A DNA stretch of 61,652 nt, filler included. It is 5 parts of 5 records of this genome, joined end to end, with 100 filler letters (N's around TTAATTAATTAA, not from the genome) between each part and the next. Parts side by side here need not be neighbours in the genome. Positions count along the whole stretch, not along the records: positions 16,020 to 22,093 come from SRR20825019_610; 4 more parts are not named here. One strand, given 5' to 3'. Both the position numbers and the translations under genes were made by a program. A model generated the notes under the pieces. The model saw nothing but the letters and a program-made list of their open reading frames with translations. It was not told where the DNA came from and did no database searches. Positions 15,920-22,093 of the stretch are shown one piece after another (the first letter of the stretch is position 1; every line of letters starts with the position of its first letter).

Positions 15920-16019
15920 NNNNNNNNNNNNNNNNNNNNNNNNNNNNNNNNNNNNNNNNNNNNTTAATTAATTAANNNNNNNNNNNNNNNNNNNNNNNNN
16001 NNNNNNNNNNNNNNNNNNN
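15920..16019. other. Artificial contig spacer
   Basis: 44 N + TTAATTAATTAA (stops in all six frames) + 44 N. Confidence 0.98.
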
Positions 16020-16047
16020 ACCTAACCTCCCCCTGATAGGGGGAGGG
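16020..16047. repeat. CCTCCCCCT/AGGGGGAGG palindromic intergenic repeat (partial, at contig end)
   Basis: 9-bp stem 16026-16034/16038-16046 preceded by CCTAA; typical alphaproteobacterial REP-like family. Confidence 0.5.
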
Positions 16048-16142
16048 ATCGATCGAGCCTGCCGAGATGATTTTGCGAGAACACTGAAATGCTCCTCCCC
16101 CCTGCTTTTGGGGGCGGTGTCGCGCTGGTGGGTTTAGAGGGA

Positions 16143-17216
16143 TCAAGCCACCGCCTTCTTGTTGACCGCGCGGCGTTTTTGCACGGCTTCGGCCAGGGCT
16201 TCGAGGGCGGTGACGGTAGTGTCCCAGCCGATGCAGCCATCGGTGATGGACTGGCCATAGGTGAGGGGCTGGCCGGGGGTCAGATCCTGACGACCGGCGA
16301 CAAGGTTGGATTCGACCATGACGCCGATAATGCGCTTGTCACCATTGGCGAGCTGGGCGCCGATATCGGCCAGCACCAGCGGCTGGTTTTCGGGGTTCTT
16401 GGACGAATTGGCGTGGCTGGCGTCGATCAGGATGGCGGGATTGACGCTCGCCTTTTGCGCCGCCCTGGCGGCGGCATCGACGCTGTCGGCATCGTAATTG
16501 GGGGTTTTGCCGCCGCGCAGGATGATGTGGCAGTCCTGGTTGCCAGTGGTGGCGGCGATGGCGGAGCGCCCATCCTTGGTGACGGCCATGAAATGATGCG
16601 GCTGGGAGGCCGAAAGCACGGCATCGAGCGCGATCTTGATATTGCCGTCGGTGCCGTTCTTGAAGCCGACCGGGCAGGAGAGGCCGGAGGCCAGCTCGCG
16701 GTGAATCTGGCTTTCGGTGGTGCGGGCGCCGATGGCGGCCCAGGCGACCAGGTCCACCAGATATTGCGGTGTGGTCATGTCGAGGAATTCGCAGGCGGCG
16801 GGCAGGCCGAGATTTGCAATGTCGAGCAGCAGGGTGCGGGCGGTGTGCAGGCCCAGATCGATATTGAAGCTCCCATCGAGGTCGGGGTCGTTGATCAGAC
16901 CCTTCCAGCCCACCGTGGTGCGGGGTTTTTCGAAATAGACACGCATGATGATTTCGAGCCGGTCGCCGAGCCTTTCGCGCAGGGGCGCGAGACGGTTGGC
17001 GTATTCGACTGCGGCCTGGGGATCGTGAATGGAGCAGGGGCCAACGATAACGGCCAGGCGATCGTCCTGGCCGGTGAGGATATTGTGGAAGGCGTGGCGG
17101 GCGGCGATGACCGTGCGGGTGGCCGCATCGGTGCGCGGGTGCTGATGCATGACCTCAATGGGTGTGGTCAGCGGTTTGATTTCGGTGATGCGCAGGTCGT
17201 CGGTGGATTTGAGCAT
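16143..17216 (-). CDS. Class I(alpha) 3-deoxy-7-phosphoheptulonate (DAHP) synthase, AroG/AroF/AroH type
   Basis: VGPCSIHD, RVYFEKPRTTVGWKGLINDP, IGARTTESQIHRE, HIILRGG, DASHANS, YGQSITDGCIGW. Confidence 0.95.
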   Translation of the reverse strand: MLKSTDDLRITEIKPLTTPIEVMHQHPRTDAATRTVIAARHAFHNILTGQDDRLAVIVGPCSIHDPQAAVEYANRLAPLRERLGDRLEIIMRVYFEKPRTTVGWKGLINDPDLDGSFNIDLGLHTARTLLLDIANLGLPAACEFLDMTTPQYLVDLVAWAAIGARTTESQIHRELASGLSCPVGFKNGTDGNIKIALDAVLSASQPHHFMAVTKDGRSAIAATTGNQDCHIILRGGKTPNYDADSVDAAARAAQKASVNPAILIDASHANSSKNPENQPLVLADIGAQLANGDKRIIGVMVESNLVAGRQDLTPGQPLTYGQSITDGCIGWDTTVTALEALAEAVQKRRAVNKKAVA

Positions 17217-17255
17217 TTCTTGTGGTCCTCTGGGAGATGTTCCGGAGGGGCCAAC

Positions 17256-17284
17256 AAAAAAGCCGCCTCGGAAGTCGGGCGGCT
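17256..17284 (-). terminator. Attenuator terminator upstream of DAHP synthase
   Basis: Minus strand AGCCGCC-cgacttccga-GGCGGCT followed by TTTTTG, about 40 nt before the DAHP synthase start codon. Confidence 0.85.
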
Positions 17285-17318
17285 GGCTTGCGATTTTGTG
17301 GTCTTGTCTGGGGTCAGA

Positions 17319-17390
17319 TCACACGCGCGCAATAGCCTCCGCCGGGAGCGGATAGCTAAAATACCAAAAGAAGGTCGCGGTGTTGATCAT
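17319..17390 (-). CDS. Aromatic-amino-acid attenuator leader peptide (23 aa, MINTATFFWYFSYPLPAEAIARV)
   Basis: Hand-translated ATG..TGA ORF; 6 of codons 7-13 are Phe/Trp/Tyr; followed by alternative hairpins and a terminator. Confidence 0.85.
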   Translation of the reverse strand: MINTATFFWYFSYPLPAEAIARV

Positions 17391-17397
17391 GGGCGGG

Positions 17398-17426
17398 AAG
17401 GTAGCGGCGAGTCAGAGGCTTGTCGA
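17398..17426 (-). promoter_or_regulatory. Sigma70-type promoter for the leader (leaderless mRNA)
   Basis: Minus strand TCGACA-N17-TACCTT, then 7 nt to the leader ATG; no Shine-Dalgarno sequence. Confidence 0.55.
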
Positions 17427-17445
17427 GTCCCGACTTTGGTAGGGG

Positions 17446-18246
17446 TCAGCCGCCGGCGCCCTGATAGTTCCTGAGGCAATAGCGCCAGTGGGCGAAGGCG
17501 AGGAGAACGAAGAGGGGGCCGATGGCGAGGGAGGCCGGGCCGGCCCAGTCGCCGAGGATCGGAACGGGTTTGTCCAGCGCCACGGCGGTGGGAATGAAGG
17601 CCAGGAATCCGAGCGGGGCGAAGGTAATCATCATGATCTGCAGCGGCAGGGGGAAGATGTTGAGCGGGTAGCGGGCCAATTCCCAGAAGCCGAAGAAGAT
17701 GGAGAAAAGGTGGCGCGAGCGGACCCAGATCAGCGCGGTTGCCCCAATCATGGTCATCAGGGCCGCCGTGAGCATGGCGGCGCTGATGATGGCGGCGAGG
17801 AAGTAGAGGACGAGGCCGGGCGACCAGTCGATGCCCAGGCTTGAGACCGACCAGACCATGAGGCCGATGGCCAGGGCGATGTGACCGCCATATTCGATGT
17901 TAAGGCCGGAAAAGGCGAGAAAGGTCCAGGGGCCGATGGGTTTGACGAGGATGGCGTCGAAGGTGCCGAGGCGGACTTTCTCTTCCATGTCGCGAAACTG
18001 CACGAAGCTGAGCGATGCGCCCAGGGCGTAGGCCAGCAGATGGAAGGCGAGCAGCAGGGCCATTTGCGGCCAGGTCCAGCCGCCGAGATTTTCAAAGCGC
18101 GCCAGGAGCAGGGCGATGGAGGCATAAATACCGGCATAGCCAATGGCCTGGGCGATCCAGCCGATGAAGAGGGCACCGCGATATTCCATATGGGTGCGGA
18201 TATGGATGCCGATGAGATGGGGGATGACCCTGAGAACACTGGACAT
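17446..18246 (-). CDS. ABC-2 family permease (DUF990)
   Basis: MEYR..F, LGGWT, VRLGTFDAILVKP, ARYPLNIFP, F..PLGFLAFIP. Confidence 0.85.
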   Translation of the reverse strand: MSSVLRVIPHLIGIHIRTHMEYRGALFIGWIAQAIGYAGIYASIALLLARFENLGGWTWPQMALLLAFHLLAYALGASLSFVQFRDMEEKVRLGTFDAILVKPIGPWTFLAFSGLNIEYGGHIALAIGLMVWSVSSLGIDWSPGLVLYFLAAIISAAMLTAALMTMIGATALIWVRSRHLFSIFFGFWELARYPLNIFPLPLQIMMITFAPLGFLAFIPTAVALDKPVPILGDWAGPASLAIGPLFVLLAFAHWRYCLRNYQGAGG

Positions 18247-18248
18247 GA

Positions 18249-19046
18249 TCAGCCTCCCTGCACGATCAGGCGATGGCGCATGCGCGACCAGAGCCAGGTC
18301 AGGACGCCGGTCAGTGCGGCAAGCCAGACACAGCCGATGGCAAGATGCAGGCCGGCGGCGGGCAGGTCGAGTTTTCCGAGATAAACGGCGCTGGGATAGT
18401 AGCTGACCCAGGCGAAGGGCAGATAGCCAAGGACGGCCGCCAGGGGCGCGGGCATGAACCAGAGCGGCACAATGGCGCCCGACGCCACGGCCATGATGCC
18501 ACGCAGGAACCAGTCGAGGGCAAAGGCGGTCAGGAGCCAGAAGGCGAGCATCGCGGTCAGGGTGGCGATGAGGAACATGATGCCCCAGGATACCACCCAA
18601 TAGGCGAGGAAAAGCAGGCCGTGGGCGAGGCTGGCCGGCGGCAGGAGACCAACCGTGAAGGCCACGATGATGGCGACGGGCAGGGTGATGGTCAGTTGCT
18701 CGAAGGCGTTGTTGCCCAACTGGTTGAAGAACAGCAGGGCCGGGTAGTGCAAGGGTTTGAGCAGAAAGGTGGTGACGTCGCCGGTGCGGATGGCATCGCC
18801 CACCTCGCGGATATAGCGGGTGGTGTTCCAGTTGAGCAGCGGGCCGGCGATGAGCACATAGGTGACCATGTCGGGCAGGGTGACGCCATCGACGGTGCCC
18901 CGGCCGACAAAGGCCGCTGTCCAGACCGCAATGAATGCGAAGGTGGCGACCAGTTCGCCAAATACGCCGGACCAGACCTGGTTGCGATAGGCCAGGCGCG
19001 AGGTGAAGGCGGTGGCGGTGAAGGCGGGGTAGGCGCTGAGCTTCAT
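18249..19046 (-). CDS. ABC-2 family permease (DUF990)
   Basis: LAYR, IRTGDVTTFLLKP, SGAIVPLWFMP, LPF..YYP, C-terminal IVQGG. Confidence 0.85.
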   Translation of the reverse strand: MKLSAYPAFTATAFTSRLAYRNQVWSGVFGELVATFAFIAVWTAAFVGRGTVDGVTLPDMVTYVLIAGPLLNWNTTRYIREVGDAIRTGDVTTFLLKPLHYPALLFFNQLGNNAFEQLTITLPVAIIVAFTVGLLPPASLAHGLLFLAYWVVSWGIMFLIATLTAMLAFWLLTAFALDWFLRGIMAVASGAIVPLWFMPAPLAAVLGYLPFAWVSYYPSAVYLGKLDLPAAGLHLAIGCVWLAALTGVLTWLWSRMRHRLIVQGG

Positions 19047-20044
19047 GGTGCCGCCGCCAGATTTGGCTTGTTCTGGTAGAAGGTGCGGATCACCTCTTCG
19101 ATGTCGGGTTCCTCGAGCTTGACGTCCTTGAGGCCGTGGCCGCGGCCGACTTCGTTGAGCACATCGATGATCGAGACGGTTTCGTCTTCGAGGACGAAGT
19201 GCTTGGCGGCGCCGTCGTCTGCGGTCAGGGTTGCGGTGGAGAGCGCAATGGGTCCCGGGTCGGTGGCGAATTCGAGGGTCAGGCGGCGGCGGGAGCCAAG
19301 CGTGGCGCGGAGGTGCTTGAGCGCGCCGTCGAAGAGCAGCTTGCCATCGTCGACCATGATGAGGCGCGGGCAGATTTCCTCGATGTCGACGAGGTCGTGG
19401 GTGGTGAGGATGATGGTGGTGCCGCGCTCGCGGTTGATCTCGGCCAGGAACTTGCGCACCGCATCCTTGGCGACCACGTCGAGGCCGATGGTGGGTTCGT
19501 CGAGAAACAGGATTTTCGGATCATGCAGCAGCGCCAGGGCGATTTCGGCGCGCATGCGCTGGCCCAGCGAGAGCTGGCGCACCGGGCGATCGAGATAGCC
19601 GGCCATGTCGAGCATGGCGGTGAGAAAGGCGAGGTTTTCGGTAAAGCGGTCTTCGGGGATATCGTAGATGTGGCGGTTGAGATCGTAGCTGTCGCGCACT
19701 GGCAGATCCCACCAGAGCTGGCTGCGCTGGCCGAAGACGACGCCGATTTCGCGGGCATTGACCATGCGATTGGCATGGGGTTCGCGGCCGAGCACGGACA
19801 GGGTGCCGGCGCTGGGCGTCAGGATGCCGGTCATCATCTTGATCATGGTCGACTTGCCCGCGCCATTGGGGCCGAGATAGCCGACGGCTTCGCCGGGCTC
19901 GATGGCAAAGGAGATGCCGTCGACGGCGCGGATTTCGGAATAATCGCGGGAGAACAGGCTTTTTATGGCGCCGCCGAAGCCGGACTGGCGCTTGAGCTGG
20001 CGGAAGGTCTTGCCCACGCCAGAGGCGGAGATGATCGGTGACAT
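19043..20044 (-). CDS. ABC transporter ATP-binding protein
   Basis: Walker A GPNGAGKST, VFGQRSQLWWDLP, LSLGQRMR signature, Walker B LFLDEPT. Confidence 0.92.
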   Translation of the reverse strand: MSPIISASGVGKTFRQLKRQSGFGGAIKSLFSRDYSEIRAVDGISFAIEPGEAVGYLGPNGAGKSTMIKMMTGILTPSAGTLSVLGREPHANRMVNAREIGVVFGQRSQLWWDLPVRDSYDLNRHIYDIPEDRFTENLAFLTAMLDMAGYLDRPVRQLSLGQRMRAEIALALLHDPKILFLDEPTIGLDVVAKDAVRKFLAEINRERGTTIILTTHDLVDIEEICPRLIMVDDGKLLFDGALKHLRATLGSRRRLTLEFATDPGPIALSTATLTADDGAAKHFVLEDETVSIIDVLNEVGRGHGLKDVKLEEPDIEEVIRTFYQNKPNLAAAP

Positions 20045-20108
20045 CGGGTTCGCTCCCCTTGGGGAAGGGAAGCTAAACCGATTCTTTGCGCGCTGTGAGC
20101 GTTTTGGC

Positions 20109-20462
20109 TCAGCTGGCCATGTTGAACTGCTGCAGGTTGAGGATGGTCACTTCACCGTCCCATTCGGGCCAGTGCAGGCGGTGCAGTTCGACAAAGCGCT
20201 GGGTCCACTCGACGATTTCGGCGTCCGTATCGAGCTCGTAGATCGCGTAGCCGCCGACCTGTTCCTTGGCTTCGGCAAAGGGACCGTCGGTAATCATTTC
20301 GCCCTTGCGGGTGGTGACGGTGCCGGCCAGGGCCATGCCACCGGTTTCGATCATGCTGGCGCCGGCTTCCATGCCGAGCTGGACGATGGCGGCCATGAGG
20401 GCCGGCGGGGGATAGGGCGCAGTCTCAGGGTTGAGGGTTTTCACCATGGTGATGAATTTCAT
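20109..20462 (-). CDS. YciI/DGPF-family protein
   Basis: TDGPFAEAKEQVGGYAI signature. Confidence 0.85.
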   Translation of the reverse strand: MKFITMVKTLNPETAPYPPPALMAAIVQLGMEAGASMIETGGMALAGTVTTRKGEMITDGPFAEAKEQVGGYAIYELDTDAEIVEWTQRFVELHRLHWPEWDGEVTILNLQQFNMAS

Positions 20463-20492
20463 TGCGGGTCTCCTGGGGGTGTATGCCGATGC

Positions 20493-20519
20493 GACGGATG
20501 GGGTGGGCGGAATTCGACA
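20493..20519 (-). promoter_or_regulatory. Putative ECF42-type sigma promoter of the DGPF gene
   Basis: Minus strand TGTCGA-N17-CGTC about 30 nt upstream of the start; matches the motif described for ECF42 targets, which are DGPF genes. Confidence 0.5.
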
Positions 20520-20537
20520 TTTTTGATGGGCAATGCG

Positions 20538-20599
20538 CCCTCACCCGGCGCTGCGCGCCACCTTCTCCCCTATGTGGAGAAGAATAGGCCGGTGAGGGG
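20538..20599. repeat. CIR/RIME-like intergenic repeat
   Basis: CCCTCACCCGGCGCTGCGCGCCACCTTCTCCCC...GGAGAAG, closed by CCGGTGAGGG (inverted copy of the start). Confidence 0.6.
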
Positions 20600-20607
20600 C
20601 TGACGGT

Positions 20608-22093
20608 TCAGGTCCGGTTGAAGTGATCATACACCAGTTGTGCCATGGCTCTGGAGATTGTCGGCACCGCTTCGAGGTCGGTGAGGGAGGCGCGGGAGAC
20701 GGCTTTGGCGGAGCCGAAATGGTTGAGCAGAGCGCGCTTGCGGGCGGGGCCGATGCCGTCGATTTCGTCGAGCGGGTTCTTGACCACGTCCTTCTTGCGG
20801 CGGGCGCGGTGAGTGCCGATGGCGAAGCGGTGGGCTTCGTCGCGCAGGCGCTGCACATAGTAGAGGACGGGATCGCGGTGCGGCAGCATGAAGGCGTCAC
20901 GGCCCTCGATGAAGAATTTTTCGCGGCCGGCATCGCGTTCCTCGCCCTTGGCGATGCCGATGAAGGTGACTTCCTTGGGCAGGTTCAGCTCGGCGATGAC
21001 GTCGCGCACGGCGTTGAGCTGGCCGGCGCCACCATCGATGAACACCACGTCGGGCCAGTCGGGCATGCCGGTGTTTTCGTCCTCGGCGTCGGTCTGGCTT
21101 TCGGTGGCGAGGCGGGAGAAGCGGCGGGTGAGCACTTCGCGCATCATGCCGAAGTCATCGCCGGGGGTGATGTCGGTCGATTTGATGTTGAAGGTCCGAT
21201 AGTGCTTTTTGGAAAAGCCTTCCTCGCCTGCCACGATCATGGCGCCCACCGCATTGGTGCCGGAAATGTGGGAGTTATCGTAGACCTCGATGCGGCGCGG
21301 GGTTTCTTCGAGGCCGAAGGTTTCGGCGACGCCTTCGAGCAGGGTGCGGTTGGAGGCGCCTTCGGCCAGTTGGCGGCCAAGGGCCTCGCGGGCATTGTTG
21401 AGGGCGTGATTGACCAGATCGCGCTTCTCGCCGCGCTGCGGGGTTTCGATGCGCACCTTGCGGCCGGCGCGGGAGGATAGCGCTTCCTCGATCAGCGCGG
21501 GTTCGGCCATGTCATGGCTGAGCAGGACCAGCCTGGGCGGCGTGCGATCCTCATAGAACTGGACGAGGAAGGCCTCGAGCACTTCGGCATCGGTGAGACT
21601 GTCATCGGCCTTGGGGCGGAAGGCGTGGTTGCCCCAGTTCTGGAAGGCGCGGAAGAAGAAGACCTGCACACAGAACTGGCCGCCTTCGTGGTGGATGGCG
21701 AAGACGTCGGCCTCCTCGACAGCGCGGGCGGTGGCATCGCCCTGCGACTGGATGAGCGCAAGGGCCGAAAGGCGGTCGCGAATGAGGGCGGCGCGCTCGA
21801 AATCGAGATCTTCGGCGGCCTTGTTCATGTCGGCCTGCAGGTGGTTGCGCACCGCGTCGGACTTGCCGGAGAGAAACTGGCGCGCATCCGCGACCAGTTC
21901 GGCATAGCCTTCGAGGCTGATTTCGCGCGTGCAGGGGCCGGCACAGCGCTTGATCTGGTATTGCAGGCAGGGCCGGGTGCGGGCGGCATAAAAGCTGTCC
22001 GAGCAATTGCGCAAGAGGAACGCCTTTTGCAGGCTCGCTATGGTGCGGCTGACGGCGACGGCTGAGGCGAAGGGGCCGAAATAGTCGCCCTTG
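20608..22093 (-). CDS. uvrC: Excinuclease ABC subunit C, 3' part (5' end cut by contig end)
   Basis: [58 protein letters not shown], Hh[10 protein letters not shown]. Confidence 0.95.

Follow-up and report, generated by a model that had tools for sequence, protein, structure and literature searches.

What controls the gene for 3-deoxy-D-arabino-heptulosonate 7-phosphate (DAHP) synthase at a Devosia locus in which a short, aromatic-rich open reading frame (ORF) and a U-tailed hairpin stand directly before it? The enzyme determines how much carbon flows toward all three aromatic amino acids. The locus lies on the minus strand of the window, the whole 61,652-nucleotide stretch of joined records analyzed here, in the part taken from record SRR20825019_610 (positions 16,020 to 22,093). 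We conclude that it is very probably a classical pheL/trpL-type, ribosome-mediated transcription attenuator of this aroG-like class I DAHP synthase gene. The parts of the attenuator, their mutual exclusivity, their conservation and their placement relative to ribosome footprints are supported in silico, and we infer from the analysis the translation of the leader, its transcription start, its 3' end and the amino acids that would trigger read-through.

The leader ORF (17390-17319, minus strand) has an ATG start and 23 codons followed by UGA, and it reads MINTATFFWYFSYPLPAEAIARV. Its regulatory codon run is F7 F8 W9 Y10 F11 S12 Y13 (UUC UUU UGG UAU UUU AGC UAU; 17352..17372, minus strand). The ORF is positioned 55 nt from the gene upstream and 102 nt before the DAHP synthase gene, whose start is 39 nt from the end of the attenuator U-tract (17256). 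Three helices of the leader RNA, all on the minus strand, complete the element. The protector hairpin (regions 1:2; UAGCUAUCCGCU / GGCGGAGGCUA, 17333..17358) folds alone at −12.9 kcal/mol. Region 2, the 5' arm of the antiterminator, reads GGCGG A GGC UA UUGCG (GGCGGAGGCUAUUGCG; 17328..17343, starting at 17343), and region 3, CGCAA GCC AG CCGCC (17278..17292, with CCGCC from 17282), serves the antiterminator as its 3' arm and the terminator as its 5' arm. The antiterminator (17343-17278), which folds alone at −25.6 kcal/mol, uses the terminator 5' arm and is mutually exclusive with the terminator, an intrinsic AGCCGCCCG / CGAGGCGGCU hairpin with a U6 tract (17256..17284) that folds alone at −15.1 kcal/mol; here the hairpin spans 17284-17261, region 4 (GGCGG) starts at 17267, and the U6 tract occupies 17261-17256. 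An earlier note, made from the sequence by inspection, had described this ORF with F-F-W-Y-F-S-Y at codons 7-13 and had placed the protector, antiterminator and terminator; both the ORF listing and the folding agree with it exactly. The trpL/pheL architecture that it proposed before DAHP synthase is supported by the ORF, the codons, the exclusive helices, the terminator, their position, and conservation in three proteobacterial classes.

Attenuation at this leader is predicted to run as follows. Transcription would probably start at or next to the AUG of the 23-codon ORF, and the leader would be translated as a leaderless mRNA. Scarcity of Phe-, Trp- or Tyr-tRNA would stall the ribosome on codons 7-11 (F F W Y F) with region 1 covered, leaving region 2 (GGCGG..GGC..UUGCG) free to pair with region 3 (CGCAA..GCC..CCGCC), so that the terminator would be blocked and RNA polymerase would enter aroG. 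With charged tRNAs plentiful, the ribosome would lie over region 2 up to the UGA, region 3 would pair with region 4, and transcription would end at the U6 tract. If the leader were not translated, the 1:2 protector hairpin would keep region 2, again leading to termination.

These states were modeled by moving a 28-nt ribosome footprint (P site −12 to +15) codon by codon over the window leader, with region 4 withheld from folding to represent the state in which RNA polymerase is still transcribing the terminator; all of the probabilities in this paragraph refer to that state. The antiterminator probability was 0.16 in the absence of a ribosome, with the protector at about 0.84 (0.835). Placing the A site on any of codons 6-12 (T F F W Y F S), the modeled stall window, raised it to 0.90-1.00; it then fell to 0.03 on codon 13 and 0.000 on codons 14-22, with 0.20 on codon 23 and 0.006 on the stop codon, where the protector stood at 0.98. 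F7, F8, W9, Y10 and F11 are all inside this productive window (W9 0.90 and Y10 1.00), and Y13 is outside it (0.03). The masked folding of the window leader, which had been put forward in the earlier note as a check, reproduces in the model the three classical states, namely superattenuation, starvation read-through and termination in plenty.

Conservation, the evidence that decides whether the element is more than chance, was assessed in a comparison set of 80 fetched loci encoding DAHP synthase relatives (59-94% identity). An aromatic-rich frame followed by CCGCC...GGCGG and a U run is found upstream of the DAHP synthase gene in 78 of the 80; 76 of these have complete leader ORFs with hairpin and U run and supplied the leaders for alignment, one is a copy cut by a contig end, and one is a divergent copy. 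A family model, R1, was built from a 77-row MAFFT alignment (A1) and gave 95.2 bits for the contig-end-cut copy and 39.3 bits for the divergent copy, which is in a Deinococcales metagenome-assembled genome (L067). Searching the window with R1 revealed no second copy, the other matches covering the terminator part alone at E values of at least 0.2. The hosts represent Alphaproteobacteria (Devosia, Mesorhizobium, Rhizobium, Sinorhizobium, Kaistia, Methylosinus, Rhodopseudomonas, Inquilinus and Geminicoccus), Betaproteobacteria (Burkholderia, Paraburkholderia, Alcaligenaceae, Comamonas and Undibacterium) and Gammaproteobacteria (Rhodanobacter, Dyella and Pseudoxanthomonas). The upstream neighbor varies by locus and includes ABC-2 permease, PNP-oxidase-like, SDR, UvrD-like helicase, MFS, solute-binding protein, TldD and TPR genes, which indicates that the element belongs to, or travels with, the DAHP synthase gene (aroG).

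Two further observations concern the distribution of the element. The gene 5' of the leader is an ABC-2 permease gene in the window and in D. riboflavina and a pyridoxamine-phosphate-oxidase-like gene in D. marina (L001 2164-2664), despite 94% enzyme identity; the DNA on the promoter side of the cassette has been rearranged recently between D. marina and the window. Locus L015, titled Mycobacterium sp. KBS0706, shares its exact leader peptide with Inquilinus ginsengisoli (L016) and has an enzyme that is 72% identical, which is odd for a Mycobacterium label; the L015 and L067 copies could reflect lateral transfer, mislabeling or bin contamination.

A1 shows little or no variation in three cores, GGCGG in region 2 (columns 81-85), CCGCC in region 3 and GGCGG in region 4, which is what the region 3 core, having to pair alternately with two partners, would lead one to expect. 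Such variation as occurs is compensated. At the outermost terminator pair, 50 sequences have G-C, 25 have A-U and 2 have G-U. In the outer antiterminator helix, 98.4% of cells over 76 distinct sequences are paired, one pair being G-C in 72 and A-U in 3. The consensus of the codon run, UUUUGGUAUUUU, is conserved at the nucleotide level across leaders, and the F-to-Y swaps and synonymous changes that occur within the run in A1 leave it aromatic. Spacing between the parts is likewise confined: the last codon of the aromatic run is 8-15 nt from region 2, except in nine rows with the last aromatic residue further downstream in the peptide; region 2 is mostly 11-23 nt from the stop codon (one case of 5, with 20 the commonest); and the stop codon is 19-39 nt from region 3, with one case of 50.

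Several results weigh against the attenuator reading. The fold of the whole 224-nt leader barely beats its shuffles (z −1.55, equaled by 14 of 200), a simple terminator scan missed the bulged hairpin on the minus strand, and a promoter scan with the E. coli consensus returned zero sites. Two of the 80 loci (L056 and L058) are without the leader-terminator element. At equilibrium the full-length leader goes to the terminator with a probability of ~1 whichever ribosome mask is applied; a working switch must therefore be kinetic and act during transcription, as in the E. coli trp leader, with the kinetics assumed here. Since equilibrium folding of the complete leader always yields the terminator and has no bearing on a kinetic model, it was dropped as a test and folding with region 4 withheld was used in its place. 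The core helices are without variation and so contribute no covariation signal, and the inner antiterminator helix is paired in only 55.7% of MAFFT cells. The alignment of orthologs suggested in the earlier note, which was to look for conserved aromatic codons and stem covariation, shows the aromatic cluster in 78/80 loci and compensation at the outer pairs. Applied to the 77 rows, RNAalifold recovered the terminator alone (consensus of 6 pairs), because one consensus cannot display alternative helices.

The poor pair count of the inner helix arises because its register differs between clades, the arms being GGCU..UUGCG/CGCAAGCC in the group of the window, GGAUU/AAUCC in Mesorhizobium, GGAUUUCG/CGAAGUCC in Rhodopseudomonas and GGGAA/UUCCC in the Alcaligenaceae. 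An alignment-free duplex test was therefore used, in which the 18 nt 3' of region 2 were paired with the 18 nt 5' of region 3 for 64 distinct pairs. The mean duplex energy was −9.25 kcal/mol for cognate flanks, compared with −6.82 for shuffled and −7.38 for non-cognate flanks, and z was below −1.64 in 18 of the 64, which gives the inner antiterminator helix moderate support. The same ribosome masking was applied to 74 distinct family leaders. A ribosome stalled on an aromatic codon gave an antiterminator probability of at least 0.5 in 62 of them; counting against the attenuator reading, suppression at the stop codon (antiterminator ≤0.1) was seen in only 40, both outcomes together in 29, and 23 had no effective protector. 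The footprint geometry modeled in this way is clean in the window leader and mixed across the family, and the mixed outcome is probably in part a limit of the model, because the folding program allows a 5-bp helix to close a loop that holds the bound ribosome.

The region 5' of the leader ORF bears on how it might be transcribed and translated. A putative −10 element, CTACCT (17399..17404, minus strand), is positioned 8 nt 5' of the leader ATG, and a putative −35 element, TCGACA (17421..17426, minus strand), is placed 16 nt from it. Among 75 upstream regions, YTAB occurs at −15 to −13 in 57 and GACA at −34/−33 from the leader ATG in 39. A motif resembling a Shine-Dalgarno sequence before the leader ATG is absent from 68 of the 75 and present in 7. 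The fixed distance of the −10-like motif, taken with the missing Shine-Dalgarno sequence, points to a start at or next to the AUG and to a leaderless or near-leaderless leader mRNA, and the leader is apparently translated from a leaderless transcript. Loci of Burkholderia and Paraburkholderia are arranged otherwise, with a TATAAA box ~35 nt 5' of the ATG and a gap of 136-152 nt from terminator to gene.

Codon choice in the leaders also departs from that of the genes that follow them. UUU accounts for 78% of leader Phe codons (179/229) as compared with 10% (43/444) in the adjacent DAHP synthase genes (Fisher p 2e-73), and UAU for 59% of leader Tyr codons as compared with 37% (Fisher p 4e-7). 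In the window, the DAHP synthase gene has UUC six times and UUU never, and the leader has UUU twice and UUC once. This bias fits selection for slowly decoded regulatory codons and is an indirect sign that the leader is translated, with a U-rich RNA signal as an alternative source.

Other explanations of the locus have to be set against the attenuator reading. The hairpin lies 160-190 nt 3' of the ABC-2 permease gene, where it could serve as terminator of that operon as well, and given that single-sequence fold statistics are unremarkable, one might suppose that there is no attenuator and that a small ORF lies by chance beside the terminator of an upstream ABC transporter operon. Yet the aromatic ORF and the terminator occur together in 78/80 loci with unrelated upstream genes, the spacing from codon run to region 2, stop and region 3 is conserved, and of 850 small ORFs in the window (10-60 aa, six frames) the leader ORF itself is the only one with six aromatics within eight residues (1/850), a single other ORF having five; we consider chance an extremely improbable account. 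The terminated leader RNA, or the peptide, might instead act mainly in trans, like rnTrpL/peTrpL of Sinorhizobium meliloti, with cis control of aroG secondary. The nearest alphaproteobacterial precedent, the trpL attenuator, does yield a leaderless small RNA with trans functions, as described in the portions available of two papers (PMC10117765, PMC6614838), and the nucleotides of parts of the aroG leader show very strong conservation. No target in trans turned up, none having been looked for. The conserved bases, however, are those needed by the three cis helices, and the element always stands directly before aroG, whichever gene is upstream, so that a mainly trans-acting role appears improbable. 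A nascent-chain sensor of the TnaC kind, in which an aromatic-Pro-x-Pro sequence would arrest translation in response to the free amino acid rather than tRNA charging, would account for the aromatic-P-x-P that 35 of 65 distinct peptides carry after the run (in the window Y-P-L-P, codons 13-16, 17343-17354) and for the use of all four codons at its first Pro (CCG 24, CCU 5, CCA 4, CCC 2), a hint of selection at the amino-acid level. E. coli PheL reportedly also ends in Phe-Pro. Against such a sensor, the CC(G) bases also take part in region 1 pairing, the motif is missing from the other 30 peptides, residues after the run vary widely, and an arrest just past the run would cover region 2 and favor termination (≤0.03, codons 13-22), the wrong sign for a starvation response; we regard it as very improbable.

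A closer competitor retains the attenuator and differs on what it senses: in effect Phe, or Phe and Tyr, with the Trp and Tyr codons contributing little. Phe is the commonest regulatory residue (229 Phe vs 180 Tyr codons in 73 distinct leaders), 15 of the 65 distinct peptides are without Trp, the window leader has a single Trp codon, Y13 is beyond the modeled stall window, and the sub-threshold Rfam likeness of the family is to Phe_leader. Alcaligenaceae leaders are nearly pure Phe/Tyr runs, mostly Phe, and the Rhizobium and Sinorhizobium leaders have Tyr and Phe alone. A parallel is available in the Corynebacterium glutamicum aroR-aroF attenuator, which carries Phe-Tyr-Phe and, per the part of a review available to us (PMC11802643), responds to Phe limitation and not to Tyr availability. 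On the other side, UGG stands at the same position of the run in 61 of 77 aligned rows, all three residues occur together in 50 of the 65 distinct peptides, and W9 and Y10, like the three Phe codons, fall within the productive window. Sensing that is effectively confined to Phe or Phe and Tyr is a real possibility that we place well below even, and joint sensing of Phe, Tyr and Trp tRNA charging by the leader, which the earlier note inferred, is plausible but tentative and likewise placed well below even. We also consider a wider scenario, possible but doubtful as a whole, in which the aroG-leader unit would be an ancient, laterally mobile cassette, distantly homologous to pheL, that provides many members of the alpha-, beta- and gammaproteobacteria with their main transcriptional control of shikimate entry; its transcript would be leaderless, scarcity of any one of Phe-, Tyr- or Trp-tRNA would suffice, and wobble-decoded UUU/UAU together with aromatic-Pro-x-Pro would tune its sensitivity.

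The gene under the putative control of the attenuator encodes a class I (AroF/G/H-type) DAHP synthase of 357 aa (17216-16143, minus strand), preceded by a Shine-Dalgarno sequence, GAGGA (17226..17230, minus strand), 9 nt 5' of its ATG. The product matches PF00793 (DAHP_synth_1; 313 bits, E 1.2e-93) and passes the class I-alpha family model TIGR00034 (aroFGH) with 521 bits against a cut-off of 173. It scores 544.6 bits with the AroG equivalog NF006723, just below the cut-off of 568, and 490.5 bits with the AroH subfamily model, above the cut-off of 463, and as a result the feedback specificity of the isoenzyme (Phe, Tyr or Trp) is unreadable from model scores. The nearest relative among the fetched loci is that of Devosia marina (94% identity), in which a mechanical ORF list places the next ORFs 3' of the DAHP synthase gene on the opposite strand; this suggests that the gene is a monocistronic unit. 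Upstream of the leader is the ABC-2 permease gene (17446-18600; PF06182).

Beyond the DAHP synthase stop codon, close to the contig end (16020-16140, minus strand), there are two G/C-rich inverted repeats, CCCCC..GGGGGG and CCCTCCCCC-TATC-AGGGGGAGG, which might act as a terminator, or might be a repeat element at which the assembly broke off. Positions 15920-16019 hold two runs of N (16019-15976 and 15963-15920) on either side of a linker, TTAATTAATTAA (15975-15964), which identifies the window as separate contigs joined together and means that the native context of the DAHP synthase gene stops 123 nt past its stop codon.

Searches of the libraries and of the literature were used to place the family. 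Rfam 15 gave zero matches at gathering thresholds over the whole window, and Trp_leader had no match there. Permissive Rfam matches at 16900-17700 to RcsR1 (18.6 bits, E 0.38, gathering 60) and asX2 (14.3 bits) were set aside as likeness to the terminator only. An NCBIfam scan of seven leader peptides returned zero families at E values up to 10, and of eight exact leader peptides seven are absent from a collection of 15 billion proteins and the eighth is labeled "hypothetical protein". We found no description of this proteobacterial aroG leader in the open literature searched (subscription papers or regulon databases could hold an earlier prediction), none of six leader-peptide strings in a literature search, and no matching small ORF in the part examined of the supplement to an S. 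meliloti Ribo-seq paper. Separately, a sub-threshold match to the Brucella small RNA CI27 (RF02600; 37.9 bits vs gathering 59.8, E 0.00011) lies ~1.4 kb 5' of a Sinorhizobium leader (L078 1281-1438, minus strand) and is unrelated.

The E. coli DAHP synthase genes are under the repressors TyrR and TrpR, according to the available portion of one source (PMC5343134), and our results suggest that many other Proteobacteria, including rhizobia, Burkholderia, Alcaligenaceae and relatives of the Xanthomonadales, use a leader-peptide attenuator instead of repressors of the E. coli type. Adding the family to the libraries would better genome annotation and regulon reconstruction, and the family would account for unannotated short transcripts 5' of aroG. 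The element is also an obvious deletion target for metabolic engineers seeking to raise aromatic output, and it is a small natural test case for the weight that a mixed-codon leader gives to each of several amino acids.

The earlier note had cautioned that novelty would need a literature check, and this was apt, since an attenuator of a DAHP synthase gene has already been described in Corynebacterium; the C. glutamicum aroR-aroF attenuator is reportedly that of Neshat et al. 2014. Like the aroG leader, it places aromatic codons (Phe-Tyr-Phe) before a DAHP synthase gene and works by ribosome stalling, as set out in the available parts of the review (PMC11802643) and of the paper that gives its prediction (PMC4046766); it differs, in a comparison made by description only, in belonging to an actinobacterium and in having three regulatory codons and no Trp. 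Within the Hyphomicrobiales, the trpL/rnTrpL leader of S. meliloti trpE(G) is likewise a ribosome-dependent attenuator with a leaderless ORF, its transcript starting at the AUG in the account available to us (PMC10117765), with leaderlessness of the aroG leader predicted from promoter spacing. It differs in having Trp codons only, in controlling anthranilate synthase and in its demonstrated trans functions. In Vibrio, a terminator and antiterminator are predicted before a proteobacterial class I-alpha DAHP synthase gene (aroAI-alpha_Y > tyrA; PMC1173090, Table 7, seen in part); these are Merino-database predictions for two species and a tyrA operon, compared by their listing, the text available giving neither leader peptide nor codons.

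The system most similar in layout is E. coli pheL-pheA (Rfam Phe_leader, RF01859), in which a short leader ORF with an aromatic (Phe) codon run is followed by Pro and then by an antiterminator and a terminator. The regulatory codons of E. coli pheL are Phe only. It controls pheA, which encodes a terminal-branch enzyme, whereas the aroG leader precedes a DAHP synthase gene. Phe_leader recognizes two betaproteobacterial family members, L080 (40.8 bits, E 0.0025) and L064 (33.2 bits, E 0.11), both under the gathering threshold of 55, and has no match to the window leader at E values up to 10. Conversely, R1 run on an 8-kb region of E. coli K-12 picks out exactly the interval of the pheL attenuator (L081 3585-3721) with 15.4 bits and an E value of 0.0056, on a rough calibration. 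Given this weak two-way likeness, the aroG leader family would work like pheL and may be distantly related to it, while standing apart from RF01859 as curated. The proteobacterial family, which is without prior record in the libraries and literature searched, is widespread and conserved, and both its mechanism and its target enzyme have precedents.

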